DNA of 32,400 nucleotides. Origin: Clostridia bacterium. GTDB lineage: Bacteria; Bacillota; Clostridia; Christensenellales; Pumilibacteraceae. The notes beneath the pieces were generated by a model. The model was not told the origin of the DNA and did no database searches. It saw nothing but the letters and a program-made list of their open reading frames with translations. The DNA is taken from NCBI GenBank assembly GCA_017452405.1, contig JAFTMM010000038.1, positions 1 to 32,400 on the forward strand. The letters are read 5' to 3'. The translations under genes and the position numbers were made by a program. Positions 6,259 through 32,400 of the stretch are shown piece by piece; position 1 is the first letter of the stretch; each line of letters begins with the position of its first letter.

Positions 6259-6278
6259 ACACTCACCTCGTATATATT

Positions 6279-8848: not shown

Positions 8849-8877
8849 TTGATTTTTGACGGCTTGTGTAGTATACT
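8849..8877 (+). promoter_or_regulatory. Predicted sigma-A promoter of the five-gene operon
   Basis: TTGATT (8849..8854), 17-nt spacer, TATACT (8872..8877). An in-frame GTG lies 7 nt downstream at 8885. Confidence 0.5.
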
Positions 8878-8884
8878 TTTACGA

Positions 8885-9997
8885 GTGAGTTTATATTCTG
8901 ACAAAGAAAGAGAGGAATTACTTTCTTTTATAGTCAAAACTCGGCGTGAGCTTCACGCTATGCCCGAATTGTCCAGCAAGGAATATCGCACGAGCGAGTA
9001 TGTTGCTGAAAAATTAAGAGGTTGGGGTGTAAGCTACAAACGCGCGCATACCGGTCTTATTGCCGAAATCGAGGGTACAAACCCCGAAGTTGTGGCTCTC
9101 CGCGCTGACTTTGACGCGCTCCCCATTGTTGAAAACACGGGTTTACCTTTTGCTTCTACCAACGGAAACATGCACGCTTGCGGTCACGACGGGCATACGG
9201 CGATGCTTCTCGGCGCAACTAAGTTTTTGACCGAGCATAAACCTAAGTATACCACCAGGCTTATATTCCAATTCGGCGAAGAGGGGGATGGCGGTGCAAC
9301 CACCATGATAGACGGCGGAGCACTCGACGGCGTTAACGCAATATACGCTCTTCACCTTTGTCCCGAACTTCAAAAAGGCAAGGTGGGAACGAGGGTAGGC
9401 GCGTTGTTTGCCGGCGTAGTGGAGTTTGACGTTGAGTTCGTCGGAAAGAGCGCGCACGCCGCCACCAAGAGCGAAGGTAACGACGCGGTAGCTTCCGCCT
9501 GTGAGTTCGTCACTTTGTTAGACTTATGCCGTCACGGCGACGAGAATATGCTCCTTCACGCAGGAGTGATTAAAGGCGGTCAGGCAAGAAATATCGTAGC
9601 CTCCGCTTGCGACGTTGAATGTACTTTCCGTTTCTTTGACGTAAAGCAAAGCCAAACGGTGCTTGCCGAGATAGGAGAGCTGGTAAATACTATCGGCAAA
9701 AAGTACGGAGCGACGGGCAGAGTAACCGTAAAATGTATATATCCGCCCCTCATCAATCACGGTTCGGCGGTAAATAAGCTCAGAGCTATGACGGACGTTG
9801 TGGAAATGCCGGCGCGCTTCACGGCAGAGGACTTTGCGTACTATCTTGAAAAGGTTGAGGGCGCGATGGCGTGGTTAGGCGTTCGTGACGAAGAGCACGT
9901 TTTCCCTCTTCACAGTGATAGATTTGATTTTGACGAAAGCGTTCTCATTACGGGAACGGAATTATTTATAAAACTTGCTAATGCAGGAGTGATCTAA
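8885..9997 (+). CDS. M20-family amidohydrolase (N-acyl-L-amino acid amidohydrolase / hippurate hydrolase type)
   Basis: RRELHAMPELSSKEYRTSEYVAEKL, ALRADFDALP and MHACGHDGH are hallmarks of the M20D family. The start is uncertain. The track ORF begins at 8813, upstream of the predicted promoter. I prefer GTG 8885, which has no SD and sits 7 nt after the -10 hexamer. Confidence 0.85.
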   Translation: MSLYSDKEREELLSFIVKTRRELHAMPELSSKEYRTSEYVAEKLRGWGVSYKRAHTGLIAEIEGTNPEVVALRADFDALPIVENTGLPFASTNGNMHACGHDGHTAMLLGATKFLTEHKPKYTTRLIFQFGEEGDGGATTMIDGGALDGVNAIYALHLCPELQKGKVGTRVGALFAGVVEFDVEFVGKSAHAATKSEGNDAVASACEFVTLLDLCRHGDENMLLHAGVIKGGQARNIVASACDVECTFRFFDVKQSQTVLAEIGELVNTIGKKYGATGRVTVKCIYPPLINHGSAVNKLRAMTDVVEMPARFTAEDFAYYLEKVEGAMAWLGVRDEEHVFPLHSDRFDFDESVLITGTELFIKLANAGVI

Positions 9998-11241
9998 TGG
10001 CAGATAACGTAACAATAAAAGGTTTAGGCGCAAAAGCCAAACGCCGTGACGAATTTTCGACTACCGCAATTGAAGGTAGCGCTTGGTCTACGTTTAAAAA
10101 AGCATGGTCGGGCGTTAAAATTTCCAGAATATTTATAGTTGCAATCATTTGCGCGCTTTTCTGCGCCCCCGCAGTCGTATGGGTTATGATGTTTTTGCAG
10201 TACTTTACCAAAGCCATTGGCACGTCGTTTAACTACGGTTTATTTGACGGCTTGGGCTACGCCGGAGCAGGCGCGCTCACGAGTGGCATGAATACTGCGG
10301 AGATATTGGGCGCGGTAAGATACTATGAATACGCCGTTCTTCAATACGCAGTACTAATTCCTTGTATAGCGCTCGGCGCGATCGGTATCGGCGGACTCGT
10401 GACTTTGGCGCGTAAATCCATGTTTGAAGCTGCAGATAAACCCATTCGTATCTTCTTTGAGGGCGTTAAGCAGTCCTGGCTCCCTGCGATTATCGGCGGT
10501 ACTCTCGTTTCCGCTTGCATTTTCCTCGTAGTATTCTGCGCGCACGTCTTTACGGCGTACGGTCTGGGGCTGGGCGGTATGATAGTGACTATGATATTGT
10601 CGATCATACTTCTCGTTTTTGCAAGCATATACGCGTTTTATCTTCTTACTTTGAACGCAAACTATAAAATGCCTCTCGGCAGTCTGCTCAAAGACGCATT
10701 TATTCTTACCTTTAAGCGTTTCGTGTCTAATATAATCACCGCGCTTATGGTTTCGCTTATTATAGGACTTGCGTTTATGCTTACCGTTGGACTCGGTTCG
10801 TCCGGTTTTGATATGGTAGCCTGGTCGTTCCTGTTTATGTTCGGGTTCTACGCTATCTGCGCAATTTTCGTTTCTTCCAATCAAAAGACTTTTGAAACGG
10901 TTATGAACGATGGAATCGAGGAGCGTGAAGCTAAGGCAAGGACGCAGGATGCATACGCTGCGATAAGAGCTGCGAAAGCGGCAGGCGAACGCCCTGTGAA
11001 AAAATCGCAGGCGCCTCAGAGCAAGTACGTAAACCCCAAAAAGAAAAAGAAAAGCGAAAGCGCGAAAGACGAACTCGCAAAGGAAAAGATAGATCCTTTC
11101 AAGATCGAGCCTATCCGCGCAAAGGGCGGTTATACGGCTGAAGAACTTGCCAAGATCGAAGAGGATAAGCAGAAAATACTTGCGGAAGAAAATAAAGTTA
11201 CGATTGAAGACCTTTCCGCATATACTGATGATGACGAATAA
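9997..11241 (+). CDS. Hypothetical polytopic membrane protein with a long Lys/Glu-rich cytoplasmic tail
   Basis: 414 aa with about 6-7 hydrophobic segments, then a roughly 110-aa charged tail (KKSQAPQSKYVNPKKKKKSESAKDELAKEK...YTDDDE). The start overlaps the upstream stop (TAATG). Loosely reminiscent of YesL/DUF624-type proteins, but I cannot verify that. Confidence 0.7.
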   Translation: MADNVTIKGLGAKAKRRDEFSTTAIEGSAWSTFKKAWSGVKISRIFIVAIICALFCAPAVVWVMMFLQYFTKAIGTSFNYGLFDGLGYAGAGALTSGMNTAEILGAVRYYEYAVLQYAVLIPCIALGAIGIGGLVTLARKSMFEAADKPIRIFFEGVKQSWLPAIIGGTLVSACIFLVVFCAHVFTAYGLGLGGMIVTMILSIILLVFASIYAFYLLTLNANYKMPLGSLLKDAFILTFKRFVSNIITALMVSLIIGLAFMLTVGLGSSGFDMVAWSFLFMFGFYAICAIFVSSNQKTFETVMNDGIEEREAKARTQDAYAAIRAAKAAGERPVKKSQAPQSKYVNPKKKKKSESAKDELAKEKIDPFKIEPIRAKGGYTAEELAKIEEDKQKILAEENKVTIEDLSAYTDDDE

Positions 11242-12860
11242 TGATTCTTGAGTTCAAACAATCAGATAATTTTTATATAAAACAATCCGAAGCGTTCGGA
11301 CGAAGGGGCGATTTTTATAAGTCGCTCCTTTATGCGCGTAGAGCGGTTTATTTAGGCAATTCAGGCGGGGAAGAACGCCTTGCTGACGCGTTACTTGAAA
11401 GCGGTAATCTGTCTCAGGCGTGCAAAGAATACCTAAAATTATATCGCGCGGGCAGAAAGTCCACCAAAGTATATGCTGGACTTATCAAAAGCCTTACCGC
11501 TATGTCGCGCTACGCTTCCGCTACGCGTTTTATTTCCGAGGCAACGGACGAGTATTATCTTCCCGAATTCGGTGAAGATTCTTATTCGGGCGTGGATAAC
11601 GTAAAAAAATACGTCAAGCATTTATATGAAACGTATCCCTATCCAAAAGCAGACGAATCGTTTGGAATGTTATACGCTATCGGGCGTGGTGACGCGCTTC
11701 GCGACAGAACGTATATGGCGGATATGTGTCCGCAGAACGAAATGCCAGAGCCTGCTTTTTTATACAATACCATAAGCGTAGTAACGCCCGACCGTATGGA
11801 TAAAAAGCACGCCGAAGCGTTCCTGAAAATGGCAACGGCAACGTACGCCGAGGAGGAACGTCCCACCGCTATTCTTGCAACGGCGGTAGTTGCGTTACTT
11901 GCGCTCGGCACCAAGGCGGAAGCAGAGGACGTAGCAGACGAGCTTGCTTCACTCGTTCTGCCTGAAGATCCCGTCGAGCTTGCTAAATGCGCAATAGCAA
12001 TGCTTAGTTTGCGCGACTACGAATCGGCAATAGATTATTTGGAAGAACTGCTGACAATTTGCTTTGAATTTCGGCTTGTTACCGTTACCGCAATAGCGCA
12101 TATGAACGCAGGGAACGTAAAGCGTGCGCAGGAGCTTTTCGGCGCGGTGCTGAATATCGAGCCTGAAAACTACGTCGCGCGGTATTGGATAGGTCGTCTT
12201 AATAAAGGCGAAACCCCTTATCACAAGTTGGGCGAAACGTTGCCGAGAGAGGAAATCGTTCGCCTTAAAACGCTGATCGGGGAAGCGCTACTCGGCGTTG
12301 ACGTTGACGAGAAGCAAAGTAAACGCGCCGTTCGCTATTTCTTGGGCAAAACCGACGAATACGCCACGACGTTAGCGCGTAGACTAGCCGAAACGGGTTT
12401 ATATCCAGACGTATTGGAGGATGAATTATGTTCGCCCGAACACGGACTTGAGTTCGTGCGAGACGCTGTGAGCGAACTGCTCTGCAAAGAGCATAACAGC
12501 CGTCCCTCATTCTTTTTGCAAGGGCTGTTTAGTATGCGCCTTCGTTTTCAGCCTCAGATGGGAAACGAAAACGTTACGCGCGCCTTCGTGTTTGCGCAGG
12601 TAACGATGAACTTACTCGGCTTCAACAAGCAAAAAGAACTTGACTTGCTTTACGGGAAAGCGCTCGGCATAATTTCAAGTAAAGACCTTATAGGCGAAAC
12701 GAACGTACAATCGGTAGCGGCTGCGGTGTTGTCCGCCGTAAGCCTTGACGAGAACCTTAATGCTAAGACCGCTTCCGCGTTGTTTGCGTTCGCAGACGAG
12801 GAGAGGTCGGACGAGTTTTATAATCTTCTTACCGGCAAGTCCGAAGGAGGCAAATTATGA
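11241..12860 (+). CDS. Hypothetical TPR-like repeat protein
   Basis: 539 aa, all-helical, with TPR-like segments (AIAMLSLRDYESAIDYLEELL; HMNAGNVKRAQELFGAVLNIEPENYVARYWIG). The start overlaps the upstream stop (TAATG). Confidence 0.7.
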   Translation: MILEFKQSDNFYIKQSEAFGRRGDFYKSLLYARRAVYLGNSGGEERLADALLESGNLSQACKEYLKLYRAGRKSTKVYAGLIKSLTAMSRYASATRFISEATDEYYLPEFGEDSYSGVDNVKKYVKHLYETYPYPKADESFGMLYAIGRGDALRDRTYMADMCPQNEMPEPAFLYNTISVVTPDRMDKKHAEAFLKMATATYAEEERPTAILATAVVALLALGTKAEAEDVADELASLVLPEDPVELAKCAIAMLSLRDYESAIDYLEELLTICFEFRLVTVTAIAHMNAGNVKRAQELFGAVLNIEPENYVARYWIGRLNKGETPYHKLGETLPREEIVRLKTLIGEALLGVDVDEKQSKRAVRYFLGKTDEYATTLARRLAETGLYPDVLEDELCSPEHGLEFVRDAVSELLCKEHNSRPSFFLQGLFSMRLRFQPQMGNENVTRAFVFAQVTMNLLGFNKQKELDLLYGKALGIISSKDLIGETNVQSVAAAVLSAVSLDENLNAKTASALFAFADEERSDEFYNLLTGKSEGGKL

Positions 12861-13648
12861 ACATAGAAAAGCTTTTTGAAAAGGAACTTCGCGCGTATTT
12901 TACGTCCCACCGCGGAATATCTGCGGACAAGCTGGACGACGTTACGCAAAAGTTATACGAAAAATGGTCGGACACGCCTTGCGCAGAACTCGGCGGTAAG
13001 ACGCCGAGACAGTACGTCGAGAGTATCGACGACGTAAAAACGCTGGTGTCGCTTGCTCTTGAAAGCGTAAGAGGAGGGGGAGAGCCTGCGCCTTTATACG
13101 TCGAGCGCATTTCCCGAATGCCTCACGCCTCTATCGAATTAAAGGAAATTCTACTGTCGAGTGAGAAAGAAAGCGTACGAATAGTAGCGTCGGAACTGTT
13201 GGATAGAATAGGCGATACTCCCGTTTCCGACTACGTTGAAATAGTGTTCGATCCCGACACTCCTACCGATCTTCGTGAAACGCTGATCAGCCGTCTGGAA
13301 GGTGAGGACGGATTAGCGGAAATTCTCATTCCGAGAATAAGTGAAACGGAGGGTGGAGCAAAGTTTATTCTTGCCGAACTTCTTGCGCGAAGTGGCGAAG
13401 TAGACGAGCGAATTTACGAACTTCTTATTGGACTGCTTGACGAAAAGGGCGCGGTAGCCTACGTCAGCCAGCTCTTGTCCGCTTACGGCGATCCGCGCGC
13501 GATTGAAAAGCTGTCTATGATAGCCGAAACGTGCGACTACGCCGACTATATTGACATTAGAAACGCCGTGGAAGCGCTCGGCGGAGAGCTTGCACTCCGA
13601 TTAAGCTGGGATAACGACGCGTCGTATAAAAAAATAAAAGGCGAGTAA
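12857..13648 (+). CDS. Hypothetical HEAT/PBS-lyase-like repeat protein
   Basis: 263 aa, acidic and helical, with a HEAT_PBS-like motif (YGDPRAIEKL). ATGA start/stop overlap with the upstream gene. Confidence 0.68.
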   Translation: MNIEKLFEKELRAYFTSHRGISADKLDDVTQKLYEKWSDTPCAELGGKTPRQYVESIDDVKTLVSLALESVRGGGEPAPLYVERISRMPHASIELKEILLSSEKESVRIVASELLDRIGDTPVSDYVEIVFDPDTPTDLRETLISRLEGEDGLAEILIPRISETEGGAKFILAELLARSGEVDERIYELLIGLLDEKGAVAYVSQLLSAYGDPRAIEKLSMIAETCDYADYIDIRNAVEALGGELALRLSWDNDASYKKIKGE

Positions 13649-13667
13649 AATTAAATCGGAGGAAGTA

Positions 13668-14411
13668 ATGGAATACAAACTCATTACGCTCAAAGACGTC
13701 AAAGCAAACGAGGAATTTAAAGCTCTTATCGAACGTCAGAGCTCATATCTGGAAGAACTCGGTTATACCGAACACGGTCTTCGCCATTCGGGTTACGTTT
13801 CGGTTGCAACGGCCAACATACTTAAAGAACTCGGCTATGACAGTCGCATGATCGAACTCGGCAGAATAACGGGCTGGATACACGACGTCGGCAACACGCT
13901 CAATCGCAAGTACCACGGGCTTACGGGTGGCGTTTTAGCGTATAACGTACTCGTTAGAATGGGCATGGATCCCAAAGAAGCCATAATGATAAGCAACGCA
14001 ATCGGCAACCATGAAGAAAACGTAGGCGTTGCGTCCACTCCTCTTGCCGCGGCTCTTCAACTTGCCGATAAATCGGACGCTCATCGTTCCCGCGTAAATA
14101 AGGGCGGTTACGACGAACACGATATTCACGATAGAGTAAACATGTCGATTAGAAAGAATTACCTCGTCGTGGATAAGGAGAAACAGATTATCCGCCTCGT
14201 GCTCATAATGAAAGCGACGAGCGCGCCTATGGAATATCTTCAGATATACCTTCCCAGAATGGTAATGTGTGAAAAAGCGGCGACCTTTCTCGGCTACACC
14301 TTCGAACTCGTTATCAACGGCGTGCTTATAAACCACCACCGTAGAGCTAGCGCGGTAAACATAAAACTTCGTTCTTCGGAAACGGAGGTTACTTCGGACA
14401 CGGAAGACTGA
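13668..14411 (+). CDS. HD-domain metal-dependent phosphohydrolase
   Basis: 247 aa with H...HD metal-binding signatures (TEHGLRHSGYV; GWIHDVGN; AIGNHEE; LADKSD). GGAGG lies upstream of the ATG. Confidence 0.8.
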   Translation: MEYKLITLKDVKANEEFKALIERQSSYLEELGYTEHGLRHSGYVSVATANILKELGYDSRMIELGRITGWIHDVGNTLNRKYHGLTGGVLAYNVLVRMGMDPKEAIMISNAIGNHEENVGVASTPLAAALQLADKSDAHRSRVNKGGYDEHDIHDRVNMSIRKNYLVVDKEKQIIRLVLIMKATSAPMEYLQIYLPRMVMCEKAATFLGYTFELVINGVLINHHRRASAVNIKLRSSETEVTSDTED

Positions 14412-14417
14412 AATAAA

Positions 14418-14450
14418 ACACGCTAAGGGTGCGACTTGGCGTGTTTTTTG
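14418..14450 (+). terminator. Rho-independent terminator ending the five-gene operon
   Basis: Stem ACACGC/GCGTGT (14418..14423 and 14439..14444) followed by TTTTT. Confidence 0.7.
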
Positions 14451-14524
14451 ATAAAATCGTGCGATTTTATTCTTATCGCTATTTCTCTTTCATACTAATT
14501 TAACTAAGTTACGATAATATTAGC

Positions 14525-14553
14525 TTGCGAAATAAAATCAAGTATGATAAAAT
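14525..14553 (+). promoter_or_regulatory. Predicted sigma-A promoter of holA (extended -10)
   Basis: TTGCGA (14525..14530), 17-nt spacer ending in TGa, TAAAAT (14548..14553). The ATG lies 6 nt downstream with no SD. Confidence 0.6.
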
Positions 14554-14559
14554 AACCGT

Positions 14560-15531
14560 ATGAAGTTTGCGGAACTAAAAAAACGCGTGCTTGGAGGTGA
14601 AATCAAGCCGTTTTATCAGCTCACGGGTGACGACGAGTATCTCAAATCGTCTGCGCGGAAAATCCTCGCAGGCAGAATTTTTATGCCCGAACTGAACGTG
14701 GTAAGTTTGGAAAACCCCACGTCAAGTCAGCTCCGTGACGCTCTTTCCGCTATGCCCATGATGAGCGACAGAAGACTCGTTATAGTGGATAATATTTCCG
14801 AAGTGTCTGCCGTTCAGGATTTGGAATGGGGAAGTACGATATTGCTTTTGACGCACCAAGCTACCAAAAAGAAGACAAAGCCCACGAAAGCTTCAAAGTC
14901 GCAAACTAACGAGGATGCAGTCGGTGCGTTTCTTGTAAGAGCCGAAGAGGTAGACTGCTCGCCCATGGACGAGTCGATTATCTTTAATTGGCTGGCTGTG
15001 GAAGCAAAGAAGAACGAAGTTACTATCGACGTGGAGTCTGCGCGCCTTCTCTGTGAATATTGTCGCAATTATATGTCAAGAATATCGACGGAGTTTGCTA
15101 AACTTGCTTCTTACCGCATGGGCGGAGTGATAACGGTAGAGGACGTGAAGAAATTAGTAACGCCGGATACCGAATACGCCGTATGGCAACTGTCGGGAGC
15201 GATAGCGTCGGGTAACGGCAAAAAAGCTATGGAGATTTACGGCGGTATGAACGAGGATGCAAAAAAGCCCGAAGTCCTCTTAGCAAACCTTCAAAGTCAC
15301 TTTCGCAAGCTGTTTTATTCTCTCACCGAAGCTGAAGAAAAATTGACCAAAAACCTTATGCGCTCAAACGCCTTGTTTGCCGTTAAACGTGAAGCCAAGC
15401 GTTTCGGCGCGTCGCGTCTGGCAGGTATTCTCCGTAGCCTCGGACAGACGGACGAAGACGTTAAGTCGAGCGTACTGCCCAGAGAAGTGGCAAGTGAAAC
15501 GATGATTTCACGCATATTATCCGAAGTTTAG
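14560..15531 (+). CDS. holA: DNA polymerase III subunit delta
   Basis: 323 aa. The N-terminus KPFYQLTGDDEYLKSSARKIL and the overall length and architecture fit HolA. Confidence 0.82.
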   Translation: MKFAELKKRVLGGEIKPFYQLTGDDEYLKSSARKILAGRIFMPELNVVSLENPTSSQLRDALSAMPMMSDRRLVIVDNISEVSAVQDLEWGSTILLLTHQATKKKTKPTKASKSQTNEDAVGAFLVRAEEVDCSPMDESIIFNWLAVEAKKNEVTIDVESARLLCEYCRNYMSRISTEFAKLASYRMGGVITVEDVKKLVTPDTEYAVWQLSGAIASGNGKKAMEIYGGMNEDAKKPEVLLANLQSHFRKLFYSLTEAEEKLTKNLMRSNALFAVKREAKRFGASRLAGILRSLGQTDEDVKSSVLPREVASETMISRILSEV

Positions 15532-15535
15532 TTTT

Positions 15536-16126
15536 ATGGAATATTTGAGTTTAAAAAAAGAAAATCCGCGTGGAATTGCCAAAATTCTGCTCATGAAAAA
15601 ATTGCCGAACACGCTCTTATACGCGCTGTTCTATTTGTTTTTGTGTTTCGGCAATTGGTTTTCAATGCGTAGAACGGTAAGCTATATAGTCTACGCCTTT
15701 AATACTAATAACACCGTTAAACTTATACTCGGCAATGAAGTTTTCGCCTTTTTGTCGGCAGGACTCGTCCCGCTTTTGCTTTATATACTTGCGCGTTTGC
15801 TTGCATTTAGCGTTTTTCGCTTTATGCCTCGAAAGGACGTTGCCGATATGGAATACGCTCTCCGCTTCTTTTACGGACTCGGCTATCTGGTATACGGCGC
15901 GTTTTCCATGATTTATTACGCCGTTCCCGTACTTTCGGTATACGGCGAAACTATAATCCGCTTCCTTATAGTAGGCGGAGCGGTTGCGCTTTACACCTTG
16001 TTTGAAGCGAAGTACCGTATGCCCAAAAGGTTCGTACCTCGTTCGGTATACGCCTTTATCGGCACGTACTGTATAATAAACGGACTGAGCGCACTTATAT
16101 TGCTATTCAGTTATATCGTGGGGTGA
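15536..16126 (+). CDS. Hypothetical integral membrane protein
   Basis: 196 aa with about 5 hydrophobic segments. It starts 4 nt after the holA stop and ends 4 nt before the next gene. Confidence 0.62.
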   Translation: MEYLSLKKENPRGIAKILLMKKLPNTLLYALFYLFLCFGNWFSMRRTVSYIVYAFNTNNTVKLILGNEVFAFLSAGLVPLLLYILARLLAFSVFRFMPRKDVADMEYALRFFYGLGYLVYGAFSMIYYAVPVLSVYGETIIRFLIVGGAVALYTLFEAKYRMPKRFVPRSVYAFIGTYCIINGLSALILLFSYIVG

Positions 16127-16130
16127 GGGT

Positions 16131-17519: not shown

Positions 17520-17539
17520 AAGTATGTATTAAGATAAAA

Positions 17540-17566
17540 ACGGAATGTGCAACACATTCTGTTTTT
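17540..17566 (+). terminator. Rho-independent terminator
   Basis: 10-bp stem ACGGAATGTG/CACATTCTGT (one G-U pair), 3-nt loop, then TTTTT. Confidence 0.75.
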
Positions 17567-17586
17567 ACTTTTACCCTTGCGTTTCC

Positions 17587-17615
17587 TTGCGGTTATTTTA
17601 TTTTTGTGCTAAAAT
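17587..17615 (+). promoter_or_regulatory. Predicted sigma-A promoter of the NSS transporter gene
   Basis: TTGCGG (17587..17592), 17-nt spacer ending in TGc, TAAAAT (17610..17615). A leader of about 30 nt carries the GGGAG SD. Confidence 0.55.
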
Positions 17616-17648
17616 ACCGTATAGAGAAAAATCGTAAAGGGAGAAAAA

Positions 17649-19019: not shown

Positions 19020-19055
19020 CCTTGAGTTTGTGATAAAAATATTACGTTAAAATTA

Positions 19056-19084
19056 TTGAAAAATATAAAATAAAAGTATATAAT
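19056..19084 (+). promoter_or_regulatory. Predicted sigma-A promoter of cdaA
   Basis: TTGAAA (19056..19061), 17-nt spacer, TATAAT (19079..19084). The ATG lies 7 nt downstream with no SD. Confidence 0.6.
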
Positions 19085-19091
19085 ATAAGAT

Positions 19092-21274: not shown

Positions 21275-21307
21275 TGATGAATTAAATTTTTTCACAAGGA
21301 AACGTAT

Positions 21308-22630: not shown

Positions 22631-22647
22631 TAAACATAAGAAATGCG

Positions 22648-22683
22648 ACTCACCACTCTATGGAAAGGAGTGGTGAGTTTTTA
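22648..22683 (+). terminator. Rho-independent terminator after lysC
   Basis: Perfect 11-bp stem ACTCACCACTC/GAGTGGTGAGT, 9-nt loop, then TTTTT. Confidence 0.8.
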
Positions 22684-22726
22684 CATAAAAAGTATAATAT
22701 AGACTTTAACCGCGCAACCTAAAAGC

Positions 22727-24142
22727 GTGGAAAGAGTAGACGAATTATTAAGTAAAATCGAAACGCCGACGCTTTACGCCGTCAGCGCGTTTTCCTCATG
22801 CGGAACGGAGGGAAAGGTTATAGCCTCTGTTGACATAACCGATGCAATGGCTCTCCGTGATCTAATCCGCGCTATAAACACGGCAGACAAGAATAAATTA
22901 ACGTATGACGTACTTGAAAACGAAGTTCTCGTCAGTCTAGAACACAAGCACGTAACTGACTTTAGCGAGCAAATGACCGGCTTGCTTTCGGGTGACGCGC
23001 TCGTATTTCTCGACAAACAAAAGGGGTGCATGCTCGTCAACGTGCGCAAGTACGAAACGCGCGCCGTAGCCGAACCTCCCACGTCAGGCGTAATCAAAGG
23101 GCCGAGAGAGGGCTTTATAGAAAACATAAAGACCAATCTTTCGCTTATAGAACGCAAGCTCCGCACCGAAAAGCTCAGCATTGAACGCCTTAAAATAGGA
23201 AAGCAGACGGGAACGGACGTAGCGATAGTAAGCATTACGGGCATAACCGACTCCAAAGTTATTGAGGAAGTTAAGCAAAAGCTGGAAAGTATTGATATTG
23301 ACGGCGTACTCGACGCGCATTACGTGCAGACCTTTCTTGAACCTCGACCTTATTCTATTTTTAATCAAATCGGCAGTTGTGAAAAACCGGACGTAGCGGC
23401 GGCAAAACTACTCGAAGGTAGGGTGGCGGTTTTGGTAGACGGCTCTCCTATCGTACTCACGTTGCCGTTTATTTGTTTAGAGGACGTTCAGTCACCCGAA
23501 GACTACTACGAACGCTCCACCTTCGCTTCGCTTCTCCGCGTAACCCGAATAGTATCTTTATTTCTCGGAATATTCCTGCCCGGCTTTTACGTGGCGCTTG
23601 AAGTTTATCATTTTTCGGCAATGCCTCTTCAGCTTCTGCTAACCGTAATGAACGCTACTAAAGGCGTACCGTTTCCACCGCTTGCCGAAATACTTTTCGT
23701 AATGCTTCTGTTTGAAATCATAAGAGAAGCGGGAATACGTATGCCACAGGCAATGGGGCTGGCAATGAGCGTGGTAGGCGCGCTCGTTCTCGGCGATACT
23801 GCGGTAAAGGCAGGCTTCATAGGCTCTCCTGCGGTAATGATCGTGGCGCTGTCGGCAATAGCGACTTATACCGTTCCCAACGCGGCAGGCAGTTCGGCGC
23901 TTCTTCGAGTGCTATTTACTGTAATCGGCGGACTGCTCGGTATATACGGACTTCTTATTTGCGGAATGTTCCTCGTGCTGTATCTTGCAGGCATAAACAG
24001 CTACGAAACGCCGTACCTTGCGCCTTACGCGCCCGATATTTCCCGAGACAAACAGGACGGACTGCTGAAAACCCCGATAGTGGACGTAGTCAGACGGCCC
24101 AAAAGCGTGCCTAACGTAAACGGCACGCGCCAAAAACGCTGA
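22727..24142 (+). CDS. Spore germination protein, GerA-family A subunit
   Basis: 471 aa. GPREGFIENIKTNLSLIERKL and RVAVLVDGSPIVLTLPF, plus C-terminal TM segments, are typical of GerAA/GerKA. The GTG start has no obvious SD, so the start is uncertain. Confidence 0.87.
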   Translation: MERVDELLSKIETPTLYAVSAFSSCGTEGKVIASVDITDAMALRDLIRAINTADKNKLTYDVLENEVLVSLEHKHVTDFSEQMTGLLSGDALVFLDKQKGCMLVNVRKYETRAVAEPPTSGVIKGPREGFIENIKTNLSLIERKLRTEKLSIERLKIGKQTGTDVAIVSITGITDSKVIEEVKQKLESIDIDGVLDAHYVQTFLEPRPYSIFNQIGSCEKPDVAAAKLLEGRVAVLVDGSPIVLTLPFICLEDVQSPEDYYERSTFASLLRVTRIVSLFLGIFLPGFYVALEVYHFSAMPLQLLLTVMNATKGVPFPPLAEILFVMLLFEIIREAGIRMPQAMGLAMSVVGALVLGDTAVKAGFIGSPAVMIVALSAIATYTVPNAAGSSALLRVLFTVIGGLLGIYGLLICGMFLVLYLAGINSYETPYLAPYAPDISRDKQDGLLKTPIVDVVRRPKSVPNVNGTRQKR

Positions 24143-24152
24143 AGGAGGGCGC

Positions 24153-26412: not shown

Positions 26413-26413
26413 T

Positions 26414-26486
26414 TTCGACGGAAAACGACGGAGAATAAGCATCTTCGGCAATTTTAGCGCTTATAAAAAAGTTATAATGATAAGCG
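26414..26486 (+). promoter_or_regulatory. spoIIE control region: Spo0A-box-like tandem repeat, -10 hexamer and flanking inverted repeat
   Basis: TTCGACG (26414..26420) matches the 0A-box complement TTCGACA at 6 of 7 positions. It lies within the tandem decamers CGACGGAAAA/CGACGGAGAA (26416..26435). TATAAT is at 26473..26478 with no good -35 hexamer. The inverted repeat CGCTTAT/ATAAGCG (26458..26464 and 26480..26486) brackets the -10. Confidence 0.45.
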
Positions 26487-28676
26487 ATGAATAGAAGTGT
26501 GATAAAAACCGTCATAGTCCACATGCTTACGCTGGCTTTCATGATAACGGCTTGTAGCGCAACAGCTTTCGGCGTTTCGCCCTTCGGGTTTTCGGCTCAT
26601 CTTGCCGTACTCTATTCGGGCGGATTGCCTCTGGCATCGCTTTACTTTTTAGTAGCGTCAATGCTTGCAAGTCCCACGCTTACGGCGTTTTGCGTTTCCG
26701 CTTCGCTAAGCGTAGTAGGCGTAATAGCCAACCTAATCATAACTTTTGCGCCTATAATGCGCAAGAAAACGTGGCGCATGATAGCCCACTCCGCCCTCCA
26801 AACGACGGGCTACGGAGTATTTCTATACCTTTTCGGCGCGCCGAGGATAATTGCTATCGTCAGCGCGCTTCTCGGTATTCTTCTCGGTATTTTAATGTCA
26901 TTTGCTACGCCTGCGCTTGCTTCGGGCGTTACGAGGATAGATACGCTGGGGAAAGCAGGACTCAGCGCCGTTTGCGTGGTGTTCTTTATGGGGATCGAAG
27001 GGATTAAAATAGTTGACTATCCCGTTGCAAGACTAATTTTCGCGCTGTTCACGCTTGCGGTAATTTCGTGCAGGGGTAACGCTTTCGTCCTCGGCGCGCT
27101 GGCGTCTTTTGGATCTGCCGTAGCCTCGGGCAGTACGGTAATTATGGCTTGCGGGGTAATGTCGGCGTTCGGTGCGATGGCGTTTGGCAAGGGCGCGCGA
27201 ATTTTGCCTGCGCTTGCCATGCCACTTGCGTATTTTGCCGTAGCGTGTTTATTCTCATACTCGTTAGACGTCGTAGGGTGGGAAATGCTTGCTATGGGGT
27301 GCGGTTGTGTAGCTTACGTCTTGCTTCCTAAAAAGGTTATTAAGGGCGTAGCGGATTATTTCCGTCCCATAGATGCGCTGACTTTGGAAATCTCTGCTTC
27401 GGGAATGGGGCGTAAACTGCCCGAACGGCTAATTCGCGCGTCCGAGGCTTTGGGCGAGATGAGCGAGCTTCTCGGCGCAGATGCGCGCGCGGACGGCGGT
27501 GTGGGTATGCGCGTAGCCGAAGCCCTTCAAGACGTTTGCTTGACGTGTGAAAAATGCGACACGTGCGCGGTTTGCGCGGATATGACTGCGCTTGCCGAGG
27601 ACTTCGTGCTCGGTGGCGCAAGGCTGAAAAATAACGTGATTTCCATGCCTTGCTCGTGTGGCGGACGTTTATTACGCGTGGCGGGCGAGATAAAGGAAAG
27701 CTTAGCAGGTAAATTGAGCGAGAGTGAAAGCGAAAGAAGGAGCGCGTCAAGCTACGCCAAACGCCTGGCATCGCTAAAAAAACTTATAGGAAAAATTTCT
27801 GCAGGGGTGGTAGAGGATTATCGCTACGACGGTGAACTTTCCGAAAGAGTTCGAAGTAATTTACCTGATGCCGGACTGCCGTGCGGTGGCGCTCTCGTTA
27901 CTGCCAAACTGTGCGGAGTGGTGCTTGTTCCAACGGACACGTCGCCCGAAACGCTGGAAAAATCTATGCGCAAAATCATAGGTAATATAAGGGTGGATAG
28001 AACGGACGAAGTTACGCCGAGCTGGACGGCAATGTCTTTTTCGCGCGCGAGCGCTCTTGACGTAGTGTACGCCGTAGCCCAATCACCCAAGCCGGGCAAT
28101 AAGGCAAGCGGTGACTCTTACTCCGCAACGCTGTGCGATAACCGCGCCCTGCTTTCGCTGTGTGACGGTAGCGGTACGGGCAAGAGCGCTTCAAGGTTGT
28201 CGCAAGCTACGCTATCGCTGATAGAAAGCCACTACAAAGCGGGGTTTGACGCGTCGGACGGAATAGCGTCTGTAAATTCTTTCCTATCATCACGCGCCTC
28301 CGAGGAGTTTTCCGCGCTTGACGTAGTGTCAATCAACCTTGAAAACGGTGAGGCGGATATTCTTAAAGCAGGTACGCCCTCGACGTACGTAATCCACGGC
28401 GACAGCCTGACCAAAATCGACGGCTCAGCGCTTCCCGTCGGAGCGTTGGAAAAAGCCTCTTATGCCTTAGCTACCAAACGCCTTACGGCAGGCGACGTGG
28501 TGATTTTAACTTCCGATGGAGTGTCCGACGCTTTGCCCGACCTGCCCGAAATTATCTCCGCGCAGTCGAGAATTAACGTGCGTAGAATGGCGGACGGAAT
28601 ACTAGCTGAAGCCGAGCGCCGTTCCTCGCACGACGATATGTCGGTGCTGGTCGCAAGGTTAATCGTGAAAAATTAA
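26487..28676 (+). CDS. spoIIE: Stage II sporulation protein E (PP2C-type phosphatase with a polytopic N-terminal domain)
   Basis: 729 aa with about 10 N-terminal TM segments, a central region and a C-terminal PP2C domain (GDSYSATL..., SLCDGSGTGKSASRLS, LTSDGVSDAL, HDDMSVLVARL). Confidence 0.9.
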   Translation: MNRSVIKTVIVHMLTLAFMITACSATAFGVSPFGFSAHLAVLYSGGLPLASLYFLVASMLASPTLTAFCVSASLSVVGVIANLIITFAPIMRKKTWRMIAHSALQTTGYGVFLYLFGAPRIIAIVSALLGILLGILMSFATPALASGVTRIDTLGKAGLSAVCVVFFMGIEGIKIVDYPVARLIFALFTLAVISCRGNAFVLGALASFGSAVASGSTVIMACGVMSAFGAMAFGKGARILPALAMPLAYFAVACLFSYSLDVVGWEMLAMGCGCVAYVLLPKKVIKGVADYFRPIDALTLEISASGMGRKLPERLIRASEALGEMSELLGADARADGGVGMRVAEALQDVCLTCEKCDTCAVCADMTALAEDFVLGGARLKNNVISMPCSCGGRLLRVAGEIKESLAGKLSESESERRSASSYAKRLASLKKLIGKISAGVVEDYRYDGELSERVRSNLPDAGLPCGGALVTAKLCGVVLVPTDTSPETLEKSMRKIIGNIRVDRTDEVTPSWTAMSFSRASALDVVYAVAQSPKPGNKASGDSYSATLCDNRALLSLCDGSGTGKSASRLSQATLSLIESHYKAGFDASDGIASVNSFLSSRASEEFSALDVVSINLENGEADILKAGTPSTYVIHGDSLTKIDGSALPVGALEKASYALATKRLTAGDVVILTSDGVSDALPDLPEIISAQSRINVRRMADGILAEAERRSSHDDMSVLVARLIVKN

Positions 28677-28721
28677 TTGCTTTTTTCCTACCGCAAGTGT
28701 ATAATAGCGGTGGAGAAAACT

Positions 28722-29279
28722 ATGGTTAAATTACTTATCGTCCGTCATGCAAAGACGGAATGGAACAAAACGGGTAGAATACAGGGCAGAAGCGACGTTC
28801 CCCTTGCCGAGGAAAGCAGAGAGCAGTCTGCTAAGTTATGGCAACAATTAGCGGATAAAGAAATTTCGGCGGTCTTTTCGTCGCCACTTTCACGCGCCGT
28901 GGATACTGCAAAACTTATTACTGACGGACGTTACGAAATCGTCACCGACGCAAGACTTATCGAGCGTGACTTCGGCGAGTACGAGGGCAAGACGTACGCC
29001 GAACTTAATCTTGCCGATCACGACAAGCTCTTTTTTGCGCTTGACGGAGTGAAAAACGTCGAGAAAAGCGAAAGTATTTTTAATCGCGTGCGTTCGTTTG
29101 TCGAGGACGTAAAAAAGACTTACGACGGCAAAACCGTACTCGTCGTAAGCCATGGGGTATGTATTTCGTTTTTGAAGTTTGCCTCAAACCATAAAGTATG
29201 GAATGAAAAGCTATACGATATGGGCTACGTAAAAAACCTTACGCTGACTGAAATAACGATCGGGGAGGATGAAGAATGA
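28722..29279 (+). CDS. Histidine phosphatase family protein (phosphoglycerate mutase-like)
   Basis: LLIVRHAKTEWNKTGRIQGRSDVPL (RHG-type motif) and VVSHGVCI (the second catalytic His). Start set at ATG 28722, with GGTGGAG upstream. The track's TTG at 28677 has no SD. Confidence 0.85.
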   Translation: MVKLLIVRHAKTEWNKTGRIQGRSDVPLAEESREQSAKLWQQLADKEISAVFSSPLSRAVDTAKLITDGRYEIVTDARLIERDFGEYEGKTYAELNLADHDKLFFALDGVKNVEKSESIFNRVRSFVEDVKKTYDGKTVLVVSHGVCISFLKFASNHKVWNEKLYDMGYVKNLTLTEITIGEDEE

Positions 29280-29740
29280 TTTCCATCGTACTCGTAGAAC
29301 CCGAAATACCCGCTAATACCGGTAATATATCCCGCACTTGCGCTTGTACGGGTATGCCCCTTTTCCTCGTCGGCAAGCTCGGCTTTGAAATCAGCGAATC
29401 GCGAGTTAAGCGCGCAGGACTCGACTATTGGGATAAAGTACAGATAACGCGCGCGGATACTTTGGAAGAGCTGTGGGAAAAATACGGCAAAGAGAAGTTC
29501 TTTTATTTCTCCACCAAAGCGGACAAGTTATATACCGAAGTAGACTATCCCGAAGACGCCTTTCTCGTGTTCGGCAAGGAAACTAAAGGACTGCCCGAAA
29601 GCGTGATTGAAGCTAACTTAGAGAGGGCGGTGCGTATTCCCATGCGCGAAGAACTGCGCTGTCTGAACTTATCCAACAGCGTGGCAATCGGCGCCTACGA
29701 AGCGCTTCGCCGTCACGATTTCTTCGATATACTACGCTGA
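29276..29740 (+). CDS. trmL: tRNA (cytidine/uridine(34)-2'-O)-methyltransferase TrmL (SpoU/TrmH family)
   Basis: 154 aa. IVLVEPEIPANTGNISRTCACTG, LVFGKETKGLP and NLSNSVAIGAYEALR. ATGA overlap with the upstream gene. Confidence 0.88.
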   Translation: MISIVLVEPEIPANTGNISRTCACTGMPLFLVGKLGFEISESRVKRAGLDYWDKVQITRADTLEELWEKYGKEKFFYFSTKADKLYTEVDYPEDAFLVFGKETKGLPESVIEANLERAVRIPMREELRCLNLSNSVAIGAYEALRRHDFFDILR

Positions 29741-30018
29741 GATCGTTGCTTCCTTTGCGAAAGGACAAAATGCGCAATACATATGCCTAGAATGAAGAAG
29801 ACTGCGTAAAAAACGCGAACCTCGTCGGCAAGGAGTAAACACGTTACGAGCATTACGCCCGAACCTATCACCACTGCGCAAACGTCGGTGAGCGCGTTAA
29901 ATAGCTTGCCTTTAACTTTCTTTTGGACTGAGAGTATAAAAGAATAGAGCAGACGCGTAGCGAAACCTTCTATGACGAGAATGAAAAAGAGTAATATTTC
30001 CAACCAAACCCCCGTCAT
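29713..30018 (-). CDS. yabQ: Spore cortex biosynthesis protein YabQ-like small membrane protein
   Basis: 101 aa with 3 hydrophobic segments. LLLADEVRVFYAVFFILGICIAHFVL resembles the GE(V/L)R(F/V)Y block of YabQ. ATGA overlap with the yabP stop, which matches the conserved yabP-yabQ pairing. Confidence 0.62.
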   Translation of the reverse strand: MTGVWLEILLFFILVIEGFATRLLYSFILSVQKKVKGKLFNALTDVCAVVIGSGVMLVTCLLLADEVRVFYAVFFILGICIAHFVLSQRKQRSQRSISKKS

Positions 30019-30353
30019 CGGAACAACCTCCGAAGAAGGGGTTTTTTAACTCCCGAGTATTGCATAAGGCTAACTTCGCCCTCAAACGTCAGACAACCGT
30101 CTGCTTCGGAGTACGAAACGATTTTAAGTCCGTTGCCTTTAACGACCAGCGCTCCGTCGCTTGTAACCGTATTAATAATGGTAGGGGAAGCGTCCACTAC
30201 TTTTTCCACGCCCGTAACGAGAGCGCGTTTTCTGCTCTCTAGCGTAATACTGTGTTTTGGCTTTATTTTGTTTTCTTTATTTTCCACGCTATATATTACG
30301 TAAATAGCGCGAATTTTATGCAAAAATACCTGCCTTTTAAATTTGCTTGACAA
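30015..30353 (-). CDS. yabP: Sporulation protein YabP
   Basis: HSITLESRKRALVTGVEKVVDASPTIINTVTSDGALVVKGNGLKIVSYSEADGCLTFEGEVSLMQY matches the YabP fold pattern. Coordinates give the maximal ORF (TTG 30353). The real start is more likely TTG 30323 or GTG 30287, because 30347..30352 is the divIC -35 hexamer. Confidence 0.78.
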   Translation of the reverse strand: MSSKFKRQVFLHKIRAIYVIYSVENKENKIKPKHSITLESRKRALVTGVEKVVDASPTIINTVTSDGALVVKGNGLKIVSYSEADGCLTFEGEVSLMQYSGVKKPLLRRLFR

Positions 30354-30375
30354 TAAACGCGATTTCTAATATAAT
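30347..30375 (+). promoter_or_regulatory. Predicted consensus sigma-A promoter of divIC
   Basis: TTGACA (30347..30352), 17-nt spacer, TATAAT (30370..30375). The ATG lies 6 nt downstream with no SD. Confidence 0.6.
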
Positions 30376-30381
30376 TTTACC

Positions 30382-30660
30382 ATGACTGAAAAACAGAAAA
30401 AAATTACTATGATTTGTACGGTGACGGGTATGGTGCTTTTACTTATATCCGTTATTGCGCTGATTGTCAATATAATTTCACTTGTTTCTCTTGAATCAAA
30501 ACGTGCAGAACTTGAGGCGCGTAGCGCGCAACTCCAAGAAGTCATTGACTCCAACTCTGAAGAAATTACATACCGTAATACCGAAGAATATATCGAAAGA
30601 TACGCTCGTGACTACCTTAATATGAAATACGAAGACGAGGAGGTCTACGAGGCAGAGTGA
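30382..30660 (+). CDS. divIC: Septum formation initiator family protein (DivIC/FtsB)
   Basis: 92 aa: one TM segment (MICTVTGMVLLLISVIALIVNII), a coiled coil (ESKRAELEARSAQLQEVI), then EEYIERYARDYLNMKYEDEEVY. Confidence 0.75.
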   Translation: MTEKQKKITMICTVTGMVLLLISVIALIVNIISLVSLESKRAELEARSAQLQEVIDSNSEEITYRNTEEYIERYARDYLNMKYEDEEVYEAE

Positions 30661-31505
30661 GTTCAGCTGTTATAGACATCGGAAGCGGTAGCGTCAGACT
30701 CCTTCTGGGAGGCAAAAAAACGACGGTAATGACTAAGCTCGGCGAAGGCCTAAATGCAGAAGGCGTGTTGTCCGAAACGGCAATAATCCGTACGGTTTCC
30801 GCAATTAAGGATCTCGCTATGACCGCACGTCTTGCGGGCGCAGAAGTGCACGCCTTTGCTACTGAAGCGGTGAGAGTCGCATCTAACCGCGGAGAGTTTC
30901 TTTCCGCAGTCAGTGCCGAATGCGCTGTGGACGTGGAAATTATAAGCGGTTACGAAGAAGCCGAGGTTGCGCTTCTCGGCGCATGTCCCGACGGTGACGC
31001 AACCGTTATCGATATAGGAGGCGCAAGCGTGGAAATAGTGTGCGGAAGCCGTGGCAATATTTCTTACGTCAAGTCGTTGCCTCTCGGCATGGTGCGACTT
31101 ACCGAACAGTCGGACGGCGCTCCCGATCTTATAAGGGCGTATTCCGTACGTGGTCTTAGTAATTACGGCAAAGTCGAAGTTCTCGGCAAGGCTATCGGAG
31201 TGGGCGGAACGTTCACCTCACTTTCCGCCATGGCGCAGGGCTTGGAAAAATACGATTCGGAAAAAGTTCAAGGATATTATCTTGACAAGGAAACGGTCGC
31301 AGGGATACGGGAAAAACTTATCGAAGCCGAAACTCCGGAAAAGATAATGGAAATTTATCCGTCCTTACCTCCGCTCCGCGCAGAACTGATCAAAGCCGGC
31401 GCAATCTTCGTGGGCGAACTATTTGACTATTTAGGCATAGACGGCGTAACGGTCAGCGAAGCCGACAATCTCGACGGATATTTAAGATATAAAGGATTAA
31501 ACTGA
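30657..31505 (+). CDS. Ppx/GppA-family phosphatase (short form, ASKHA fold)
   Basis: 282 aa. AVIDIGSGSVRLLL, ATEAVRVASN and VIDIGGASVEIV are the phosphate-binding loops of Ppx/GppA. The GTG start overlaps the divIC stop (GTGA). Confidence 0.83.
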   Translation: MSSAVIDIGSGSVRLLLGGKKTTVMTKLGEGLNAEGVLSETAIIRTVSAIKDLAMTARLAGAEVHAFATEAVRVASNRGEFLSAVSAECAVDVEIISGYEEAEVALLGACPDGDATVIDIGGASVEIVCGSRGNISYVKSLPLGMVRLTEQSDGAPDLIRAYSVRGLSNYGKVEVLGKAIGVGGTFTSLSAMAQGLEKYDSEKVQGYYLDKETVAGIREKLIEAETPEKIMEIYPSLPPLRAELIKAGAIFVGELFDYLGIDGVTVSEADNLDGYLRYKGLN

Positions 31506-31535
31506 AAAATCTCACTCCTAAGGGTGAGATTTTTG
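31505..31535. terminator. Bidirectional rho-independent terminator
   Basis: Perfect 11-bp stem AAAAATCTCAC/GTGAGATTTTT with an 8-nt loop, between the convergent Ppx-like gene and the 67-aa ORF. Confidence 0.75.
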
Positions 31536-31536
31536 T

Positions 31537-31740
31537 TTACCAATCGAGTTTGGATAACTTTTTGGAATTATTTACTTTTACGTCGTCATACTTTGCGAAA
31601 TACCGTTCTTTGAAGGATTCGGGCAGGTCGGATATGCCTTCGGATGCGATTAACTCGGCAAGTTCGTCGGGCGTAAAATCGGACAGCGAAATTTCACCGT
31701 CATAGCTGTCAAACAAGCGCATAATATCTCTTTCCGTCAT
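31537..31740 (-). CDS. Hypothetical small acidic protein (67 aa)
   Basis: It has its own promoter, an AGGAGG SD 8 nt from the ATG, and a terminator. I recognise no family for it. Confidence 0.55.
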   Translation of the reverse strand: MTERDIMRLFDSYDGEISLSDFTPDELAELIASEGISDLPESFKERYFAKYDDVKVNNSKKLSKLDW

Positions 31741-31767
31741 AAGCGCGACCTCCTAAAACGCGCTTTC

Positions 31768-31796
31768 ATTATACCATAAGTAAAACGATAGCGCAA
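31768..31796 (-). promoter_or_regulatory. Predicted sigma-A promoter (extended -10) of the 67-aa ORF
   Basis: On the minus strand: TTGCGC (31796..31791), 17-nt spacer ending in TGg, TATAAT (31773..31768). Confidence 0.55.
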
Positions 31797-31800
31797 TTAT

Positions 31801-31829
31801 TTGACTTAAATTTTCGATTATTATATAAT
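31801..31829 (+). promoter_or_regulatory. Predicted consensus sigma-A promoter of hisH
   Basis: TTGACT (31801..31806), 17-nt spacer, TATAAT (31824..31829). The ATG lies 9 nt downstream with no SD. Confidence 0.6.
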
Positions 31830-31838
31830 ATACTGCGT

Positions 31839-32400
31839 ATGATTACCGTAATAGACTACGGCGCAGGCAACCTCCGCAGTGTGGTGAACGCGCTCAAAAT
31901 TTTAGGTGAGGATCCCCTCGTCAGTTCGGACGCAGACGTTATTGCAAAGGCAGATAAGCTTATTCTGCCCGGCGTCGGCGCTTTCGGCGAGTGCATGAAA
32001 AAACTCACCGCAAGCGGTATTGCAGACGCGGTTAAGGAAACGGCGAAAAAAGGCGTACCGCTTCTCGGCATTTGTCTTGGACTTCAGCTCCTTTTCGATT
32101 ACTCTACCGAGTTCGGTAAGCGTGAGGGCTTAGGACTGATTAGCGGAGGCGTGGAGAAACTCAGCGCAGGCGAGCTTAAGCTTCCGCACATAGCCTGGAC
32201 AAGCGTGGAGGTCAATCCCGACAGTAGGCTTTTAAAAGGTACGGAAAACGGAGAGTTCTTCTATTTTGTGCATAGCTACCGCGCTAAGGCGACTAACGAG
32301 GCGGACGAAGCCGCAACGGCTGTATACGGCGAACGGTTCACCGCGGCGGTGGAAAAGGACAATATCTTCGCCACGCAATTCCACCCCGAAAAAAGTGGCA
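31839..32400 (+). CDS. hisH: Imidazole glycerol phosphate synthase, glutamine amidotransferase subunit HisH (3'-truncated by the window edge)
   Basis: Absent from the ORF track because it is open at the right edge. Translation reads MITVIDYGAGNLRSVVNALKILGEDPLVSSDADVIAKADKLILPGVGAFGECM...GVPLLGICLGLQLLF...FYFVHSY...ATQFHPEKSG, which is the class-I GATase triad context of HisH. Confidence 0.92.
   Translation, partial: MITVIDYGAGNLRSVVNALKILGEDPLVSSDADVIAKADKLILPGVGAFGECMKKLTASGIADAVKETAKKGVPLLGICLGLQLLFDYSTEFGKREGLGLISGGVEKLSAGELKLPHIAWTSVEVNPDSRLLKGTENGEFFYFVHSYRAKATNEADEAATAVYGERFTAAVEKDNIFATQFHPEKSG

Follow-up and report, generated by a model that had tools for sequence, protein, structure and literature searches.

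Six transcription units in a 32,400-nucleotide (nt) stretch of DNA from a Clostridia bacterium of the Pumilibacteraceae (contig JAFTMM010000038.1, positions 1 to 32,400 of the forward strand; hereafter the window) are most probably expressed from leaderless mRNAs, as judged from the placement of their promoters. They are the M20 amidohydrolase operon, holA, cdaA, spoIIE, divIC and hisH. All six had been picked out in a first-pass annotation of the window, and each was found again at the same position with a matching sequence (Table 1), the gaps between the -10 hexamer and the start codon being 6, 6, 7, 7, 8 and 9 nt. A -35 hexamer at a 17-nt spacer accompanies five of them and is missing from spoIIE, as had been reported. 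The absence of a Shine-Dalgarno (SD) sequence at the six starts was likewise confirmed, the predicted pairing energy of the 20 upstream nucleotides with the anti-SD sequence ranging from -1.6 to +2.9 kcal/mol (M20 -1.6, holA +0.5, cdaA -1.0, spoIIE -1.0, divIC +2.9 and hisH +1.0). The leaderless interpretation was supported by every sequence-level test that we ran, whether on start codons, on conservation of the geometry, on its restriction to first genes or on its absence from control genomes. Beyond the window, we see about an even chance that a family-level clade of uncultured gut spore-formers has moved approximately one third of its transcription units to leaderless initiation, which would make it the first such clade in Clostridia and the first endospore-former with leaderless use at the level of the Actinobacteria.

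Table 1. Promoter-to-start layouts and other features discussed in the text (window coordinates, unless the locus of a relative is named)
Feature	Position	Strand	Elements
M20 amidohydrolase operon	8849..8887	+	-35 TTGATT 8849-8854, 17 nt, -10 TATACT 8872-8877, 7 nt, GTG 8885
holA	14525..14562	+	-35 TTGCGA 14525-14530, 17 nt, TGa-TAAAAT 14548-14553, 6 nt, ATG 14560
cdaA	19056..19094	+	-35 TTGAAA 19056-19061, 17 nt, -10 TATAAT 19079-19084, 7 nt, ATG 19092
spoIIE	26473..26489	+	no -35, -10 TATAAT 26473-26478, 8 nt, ATG 26487
divIC	30347..30384	+	-35 TTGACA 30347-30352, 17 nt, -10 TATAAT 30370-30375, 6 nt, ATG 30382
hisH	31801..31841	+	-35 TTGACT 31801-31806, 17 nt, -10 TATAAT 31824-31829, 9 nt, ATG 31839
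Two Spo0A-box-like motifs upstream of spoIIE	26414..26431	+	TTCGACG (26414), AACGACG (26424), 10 nt apart
gerA (candidate)	22692..22729	+	GTATA 22692-22696, 18 nt, CAACCTA 22715-22721, 5 nt, GTG 22727; no SD
yabP (candidate)	30285..30321	-	-35 GCATAAA 30321-30315, 14 nt, cgTAATAT (TAATAT 30298-30293), 5 nt, GTG 30287
gpm	28677..28724	+	TTGCTT, 17 nt, TATAAT (28700-28705), 16 nt with GGTGGAG, ATG 28722; mini-leader
DUF421-gene hairpin	L025 ~8800-8840; L026 ~8790-8830; L027 ~8920-8960		DUF421 gene annotated in L025 and L026

An independent promoter scan of the window placed divIC (12/12), cdaA (11/12) and hisH (11/12) among its five best sigma-70-type matches. The remaining two lie upstream of ilvB and dinJ, at 31 and 30 nt from an SD-preceded ATG, and correspond to ordinary short leaders. 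SD-bearing genes gave anti-SD energies from -5.2 to -16.6 kcal/mol, and those listed as such in the first-pass annotation from -7.4 to -16.6 kcal/mol. The latter comprise adhE, rex, ilvB, dinJ, mgtE, the SNF (NSS) transporter and an open reading frame (ORF) of 67 amino acids (aa), and an SD was confirmed for all of them, with the starts of adhE and rex, both misplaced in the raw ORF list, reset to 2527 behind GGAGG and to 3206 behind GGGGAG, respectively. The operon-internal genes had also been described as SD-bearing, which holds for most of them (12 of 15). The claim that about 40 percent of the promoter-proximal genes are leaderless is a fair one, the share being 6/13 by the original lists and 6/17-18 by our own. 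Scans of the window against Rfam and for tRNAs returned no match, which leaves no riboswitch or T-box leader as a rival to the leaderless interpretation.

Hexamers resembling TATAAT arise readily in AT-rich intergenic DNA, and the layouts might be a product of chance or of annotation, with the true starts elsewhere. The M20 gene is where this explanation finds most to hold on to. Its start is the weakest of the six, a GTG preceded by four in-frame TTGs, none with an SD, and its start was called differently in two assemblies of the same sequence, one yielding a protein of 370 aa (GTG 8885) and the other a protein of 387 aa (upstream start, 8834). The yabP gene, discussed below, also has an alternative TTG start with an SD-like motif. 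Against chance stands the count itself: promoter-like sites (at least 9/12) ending 5-9 nt upstream were found at 5 of the 18 promoter-proximal starts of the window, against a mean of 0.27 in composition-preserving shuffles, and none of 20,000 shuffles reached five. For matches of at least 11/12 in this register, three were observed and 0.005 expected, and no promoter-like site fell in any of the other 5-nt bins between 0 and 24 nt upstream. Moreover, the much more AT-rich megaplasmid pSOL1 has only one of its 164 promoter matches in the leaderless register. As to the starts, in-frame stops lie 2-5 codons upstream of those of holA, cdaA, spoIIE and divIC, and no start codon occurs in the 33 codons upstream of that of hisH. 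The N-termini of the orthologues are conserved from residue 1, as MKF(A/S)ELK for holA, MI(T)(V/I)IDYGAGN for hisH, MTEKQKKIT for divIC and M..(V/I)(I/L)KT(V/I)IVH for spoIIE. In-frame stops, or the lack of an upstream start, together with N-terminal conservation thus fix five of the six start codons, and for those five an artefact is rejected. A shift to downstream, SD-preceded starts was not borne out, the best downstream in-frame energy being an unconvincing -6.0 kcal/mol. Taken over all six, we give chance or misannotation very little credence.

The leaderless reading was then considered in related genomes. The window is a metagenomic contig with 47% GC (GenBank assembly GCA_017452405.1), whose closest genome-level relatives, all uncultured Clostridia, are Candidatus Protoclostridium gallicola, of a genus filed by NCBI under Clostridia incertae sedis, and several metagenome-assembled genomes (MAGs) named 'Clostridia bacterium' or 'Christensenellaceae', with Firmicutes bacterium CAG:552 farther off. 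Genes of relatives were gathered from a genome scan, a metagenome scan and two protein searches, together with look-ups of contigs. The metagenome scan, with SpoIIE, gave a single locus, further relatives came from the protein searches and look-ups, and the look-ups with ilvB and divIC led only to contigs inside the window; our statistics therefore describe lineage loci of about 275 kb in all rather than whole genomes. Pfam labels on the called genes back the gene names (Peptidase_M20, DNA_pol3_delta_C for holA, DAC for cdaA and SpoIIE), as do those on orthologues (DivIC on L013 divIC and GATase on L012 hisH).

The holA layout is kept in all nine further genomes, at protein identities down to 30%. 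Across seven aligned upstream regions no change is seen in the TTG of the -35, in the TA...T of the -10 or in the ATG, and L025, L026 and L027 also keep the layout. That of cdaA is kept in 8/9 further genomes (L005, L006, L007, L008, L009, L025, L026 and L027), as an 11/12 promoter 6-8 nt from the ATG with a different gap sequence in each; the exception is CAG:552, where cdaA is operon-internal and has a GGGAGG SD. For spoIIE it is kept in 5/5, TAnnnT standing 7-8 nt upstream of the start in all six genomes including the window. Both further genomes keep the hisH layout, with gaps of 8 nt in L012 and 10 nt in L011 (9 nt in the window), and L006 has the M20 layout in identical form (TTGATT-17-TATACT-7-GTG), the only further case for this gene. 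The divIC layout is kept in two of three genomes, L012 and L013 having the same consensus hexamers 6 nt from the ATG and L011 having a leader with an SD.

When each gene was counted once per distinct genome (L008, a near-duplicate of L007, was omitted), 31 gene-genome cases were obtained. The gap measured 6 nt in 11, 7 nt in 11, 8 nt in seven, and 9 and 10 nt in one each, so that 29 fall within 6-8 nt. The start codon is ATG in 28 and GTG in three, and the base before it is T in 19. A -35 at 17-18 nt or a TGn extension is present in 25/31. Among the orthologous cases, anti-SD energies run from -4.0 to +2.9 kcal/mol, with L013 divIC (-5.1 kcal/mol) as the one exception. The bases of the gap are not conserved, whereas the -35, the -10 and the distance are. 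A fixed gap with drifting bases would be expected if selection acted on how far the first transcribed base lies from the -10. These are orthologous sites, and hence non-independent observations, which tempers their weight in favour of leaderless initiation.

A promoter-first scan was also carried out, in which every sigma-70-type match of at least 10/12 was listed, independently of gene calls, and the first ORF-opening start downstream was recorded. In the window and the loci of 13 relatives such a start lies 6-9 nt past the -10 at 21 of 99 sites (3/9 in the window and 18/90 in the relatives). All 21 starts are ATG, and counts at neighbouring distances are near zero. Among the controls, 150 kb of Escherichia coli K-12 gave 0/18 and 150 kb of Clostridium acetobutylicum pSOL1 the 1/164 mentioned above (lineage versus both, Fisher test, p = 1e-9). 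The outgroup locus L028, with a holA 32% identical, gave 0/8; there (2352-2354, 5667-5850) comEC and holA are coupled, and an AAGGA SD precedes both spoIIE and yabP. L028 would thus mark a boundary of the trait. Five gene families beyond the six show the layout in relatives. Two are those of a PHP hydrolase and of gpm (the latter in L015); the other three encode unnamed proteins of 164 aa (161 in L007), 201 aa and 197 aa.

Counting from genes rather than promoters, at eight lineage loci and with called starts (two mis-called ones corrected, those of the window curated), we classified 25 of 76 first genes as leaderless-type, 37 as SD-bearing and 14 as neither; for 63 operon-internal genes the figures were 2, 50 and 11. 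The leaderless-type share of first genes is thus 33%, with a spread among loci from about 7% to 55% (L014 1/14, window 6/17, L012 5/9). The first-pass annotation had suggested a lineage-wide feature. This holds for the clade, but with an uneven share of first genes, L014 and L012 standing at the two ends. The arrangement is, to judge from the loci sampled, a property of a clade of Candidatus Protoclostridium-related Clostridia MAGs together with CAG:552.

These counts also bear on a reading in which the TA-rich hexamers are not promoters and serve as a non-SD ribosome-binding signal on leadered mRNAs, of the Bacteroidetes kind (group B of GeneMarkS-2). The hexamers are A/T-rich and sit where a ribosome-binding site would be, as such a signal should. 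True group B motifs, however, precede all genes, internal ones included (PMC6028130), whereas the present motif belongs to first genes, internal genes use GGAGG, and the -35 at exactly 17-18 nt or the TGn extension found in most cases is left without a role. We therefore hold it to be highly improbable.

In leaderless initiation as we propose it, RNA polymerase would start on the first base of the start codon, an A (or G) that is the 7th-9th base past the -10, or 1-3 nt before it, given the placement of the -10. The first transcribed base is usually the seventh or eighth after the -10 and a purine following a pyrimidine, which in 19 of the 31 cases would be the A of ATG after a T. The resulting mRNA could not pair with the anti-SD sequence; ribosomes carrying initiator tRNA would instead load directly on the 5'-terminal AUG, as work on E. 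coli, mycobacteria and Deinococcus indicates. Two modes of initiation would coexist in the same genome, GGAGG-type SDs serving the internal genes and the other first genes. With its gap of 8-10 nt hisH more likely carries a leader of 1-3 nt, which is still usually classed as leaderless.

Several observations weigh against this proposal. The gap of hisH exceeds the optimum, and M20 and two orthologous cases start with GTG, which works poorly as a leaderless start in E. coli. Transcripts reading through from upstream genes are conceivable, as no clear terminator is seen in the 72 nt between the SNF gene and cdaA or in the 74 nt between gerC and spoIIE. Over their first 40 nt the six mRNAs are no less folded than those of other genes (-4.3 versus -3.2 kcal/mol, p = 0.55), a comparison that is uninformative as to leaderless initiation. 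Leaderless mRNAs are few in the Clostridia mapped so far, which sets a low prior for Firmicutes: they account for 6/1646 transcription start sites (TSS), or 0.4%, in C. difficile (bioRxiv 10.1101/2020.08.10.244764), for 2-3% in the solventogenic clostridia of the C. acetobutylicum group (PMC9045289) and for about 4%, termed 'potential', in C. phytofermentans (PMC5171806). More were reported in an RNA-seq study of C. acetobutylicum that relied on coverage rather than on 5'-end mapping.

Taken further, some of these points lead to the view that the promoters near the ATGs are real and that the genes are mostly expressed from longer transcripts, through read-through or upstream promoters, with SD-less initiation by A/U-rich standby binding or re-initiation. 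The short intergenic gaps before cdaA and spoIIE fit it, as does a second, weak promoter-like site upstream of holA (14489-14518), and most of the 'potentially leaderless' genes of C. phytofermentans also have an upstream TSS (PMC5171806). Such leaders would still be SD-less, even though strong SDs mark the other genes of the same genome, and the 6-8 nt between -10 and ATG, with its drifting bases, would be left unexplained. We regard longer transcripts as unlikely to be the main explanation, though less so than the chance and ribosome-binding-signal accounts given above.

Leaderless initiation on this scale has precedents outside the class. In M. tuberculosis the -10 of leaderless genes is reported 6-8 nt upstream, and group C of GeneMarkS-2, to which 90% of Actinobacteria and 97% of Deinococcus-Thermus belong, includes only 36 of 1064 Firmicutes, with no Clostridia named among these in the text (PMC6028130). 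As in group C, a Pribnow box stands 6-8 nt before first genes (29/31 here) and SDs serve the internal genes and the rest of the first genes; the pattern extends there to 25-50% of operons (PMC6028130), compared with 33% of first genes here. Where high-GC genomes show a bare TAnnnT, the present sites have a complete TATAAT together with a good -35, and the host, in contrast to the main members of group C, is of a spore-forming Clostridia lineage. Group C also took in 717/4930 human-gut species bins, for which no taxonomic detail was given. Zheng et al. (2011) (PMC3160421) described TA-like signals about 10 nt upstream in the Lactococcus-Streptococcus and Oenococcus-Leuconostoc groups and in Mycoplasma, with a mean of 4.2% leaderless genes in Firmicutes and a maximum of 16.6%, mostly in Lactobacillales and Mycoplasma. 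The TAtAAT-type box, often TG-extended there, is shared, as at holA. Unlike that mean, 6-8 of the 32 window genes (19-25%) fit the pattern. With the mapped Clostridia the present lineage has in common its class, its sporulation genes and its GGAGG SDs, and it differs in the share of promoter matches in the leaderless register (21/99, versus 1/164 in pSOL1). Literature searches for leaderless mRNAs in Christensenell*, Bacillota or MAGs returned nothing on this lineage. The mechanism is thus already known, but its use in this lineage, to this extent and at sporulation promoters has apparently not been described.

Three sporulation genes of the window are of interest in this respect. In none of the six genomes does the best -35 match of spoIIE exceed 3 of 6 positions (range 1-3). 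Upstream lie two Spo0A-box-like motifs, and TTCGAC, which we take to be the reverse of the 0A box (TGTCGAA) of B. subtilis, is aligned in 5/6 genomes about 55-70 nt before the start. The B. subtilis spoIIE promoter is used by sigma-A and activated by Spo0A~P, and the two are alike in having a -10 without a usable -35 and TTCGAC-type motifs upstream. A Spo0A-activated sigma-A promoter would fit here also and would be a likely explanation of the missing -35. The placement of the -10 at 7-8 nt from the start, common to all six genomes, is set apart from B. subtilis, whose spoIIE mRNA is not known to be leaderless.

Upstream of gerA, three of six genomes share the pattern G(T/C)ATA, 17-18 nt, CAA(C/T)(C/A)TA and 5 nt to the start: the window, L006 (about 13630-13674) and L011 (about 6250-6293, as GCATA-18-CAATATA-5-ATG). 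No convincing sigma-G/F-type match was seen at gerA of L013, L014 or L015, which are SD-less too; the upstream sequence differs in L013 and L014. Going by the literature consensus, we tentatively assign this promoter to a forespore sigma factor (G or F) in leaderless register. The yabP promoter, judged in the same way, is a candidate for a sigma-E-like one. In four genomes (the window, L011, L012 and L013) its -35 fits ZHATAXX at 7/7 positions with the register unchanged, the spacer is 14 nt and the -10 matches 5-6 of 8; in these four genomes a -10 containing TAnnnT is followed after 5-6 nt by a conserved GTG. The alternative start in the window is a TTG at 30323 behind the SD-like AAAGGCAGG, which gene callers chose in the window's own assemblies, the short form being called in L012 and L013. 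If both gerA and yabP hold, eight of about 18 transcription units, and likewise 8/18 of the first genes, would be leaderless in the window, and the trait would not be confined to sigma-A.

Close relatives differ at divIC and gpm. In L011 divIC (14379-14478) a consensus TTGACA-17-TATAAT lies about 70 nt upstream and is followed by a GC-rich hairpin and an SD (AAGAGGTGG), and the start lies three codons earlier. The gene is thus predicted to switch between leaderless and leadered forms. The promoter of gpm begins 1 nt past the spoIIE stop, its mini-leader of approximately 9-10 nt carrying GGTGGAG. Relatives range from a long leader in L011, through -10-to-ATG gaps of 20 nt in L014 and 16 nt in L013, to the fully leaderless type in L015 (9139-9176; TATAAT-6-ATG). 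Such gene-by-gene differences (three leaderless and one leadered for divIC; leaderless, mini-leader and long leader for gpm) offer a natural series for the gain and loss of leaders.

If leaderless initiation is confirmed, its heavy use would have arisen inside Clostridia, where mapped species reach 0.4-4%, and would extend to sporulation-specific promoters. Should the clade-wide reading be true, the units concerned would serve replication (holA), c-di-AMP signalling (cdaA), division (divIC) and histidine synthesis (hisH), as well as sporulation genes behind Spo0A-dependent sigma-A, sigma-E-like and sigma-G/F-like promoters. Ribosomes and initiation factors would then be tuned to 5'-terminal AUGs in both the mother cell and the forespore, and individual genes such as divIC and gpm would alternate, from one close relative to the next, between leaderless, mini-leader and leadered states. 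The response of leaderless translation to the IF2/IF3 balance and to some antibiotics differs from that of leadered translation, which could affect how these gut organisms respond. For annotation, gene callers mis-extend leaderless genes: L013 spoIIE (10001-10019) was called 18 nt too long, and L027 holA (10001-10142) 47 codons too long, overlapping the upstream gene. Starts misplaced by SD-expecting callers, of which we have three examples, imply that N-termini in gut MAG catalogues would be systematically wrong for such lineages.

Some further features were observed. Two operon-internal genes of the window lack an SD, that of a TPR protein (11241; 11238-11243), which abuts or overlaps the preceding stop (ATAATG), and that of a membrane protein (15536; 15528-15538), which follows the preceding stop after 4 nt; their position suggests termination-reinitiation coupling. 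In the rex-ilvN intergenic region a 10/12 promoter-like site (3247-3275, + strand) is antisense to the rex promoter region and has no ORF downstream. The ATG at 3260, right after a TATAAT upstream of rex, was considered as a leaderless start and rejected, the gap being 0 nt and the real rex start lying at 3206 behind its SD. In L025, L026 and L027 a perfect 11-bp hairpin (GATAAGCACAC, a 7-nt loop and GTGTGCTTATC) spans the GTG start of a DUF421 gene; conserved in these three genomes, it may occlude the start codon. Finally, a dinJ/relB-yafQ toxin-antitoxin pair (window 5718-6873) adjoins a divergent double helix-turn-helix (Xre-type) gene, whose GGAG is unusually distant from the ATG (about 13 nt).

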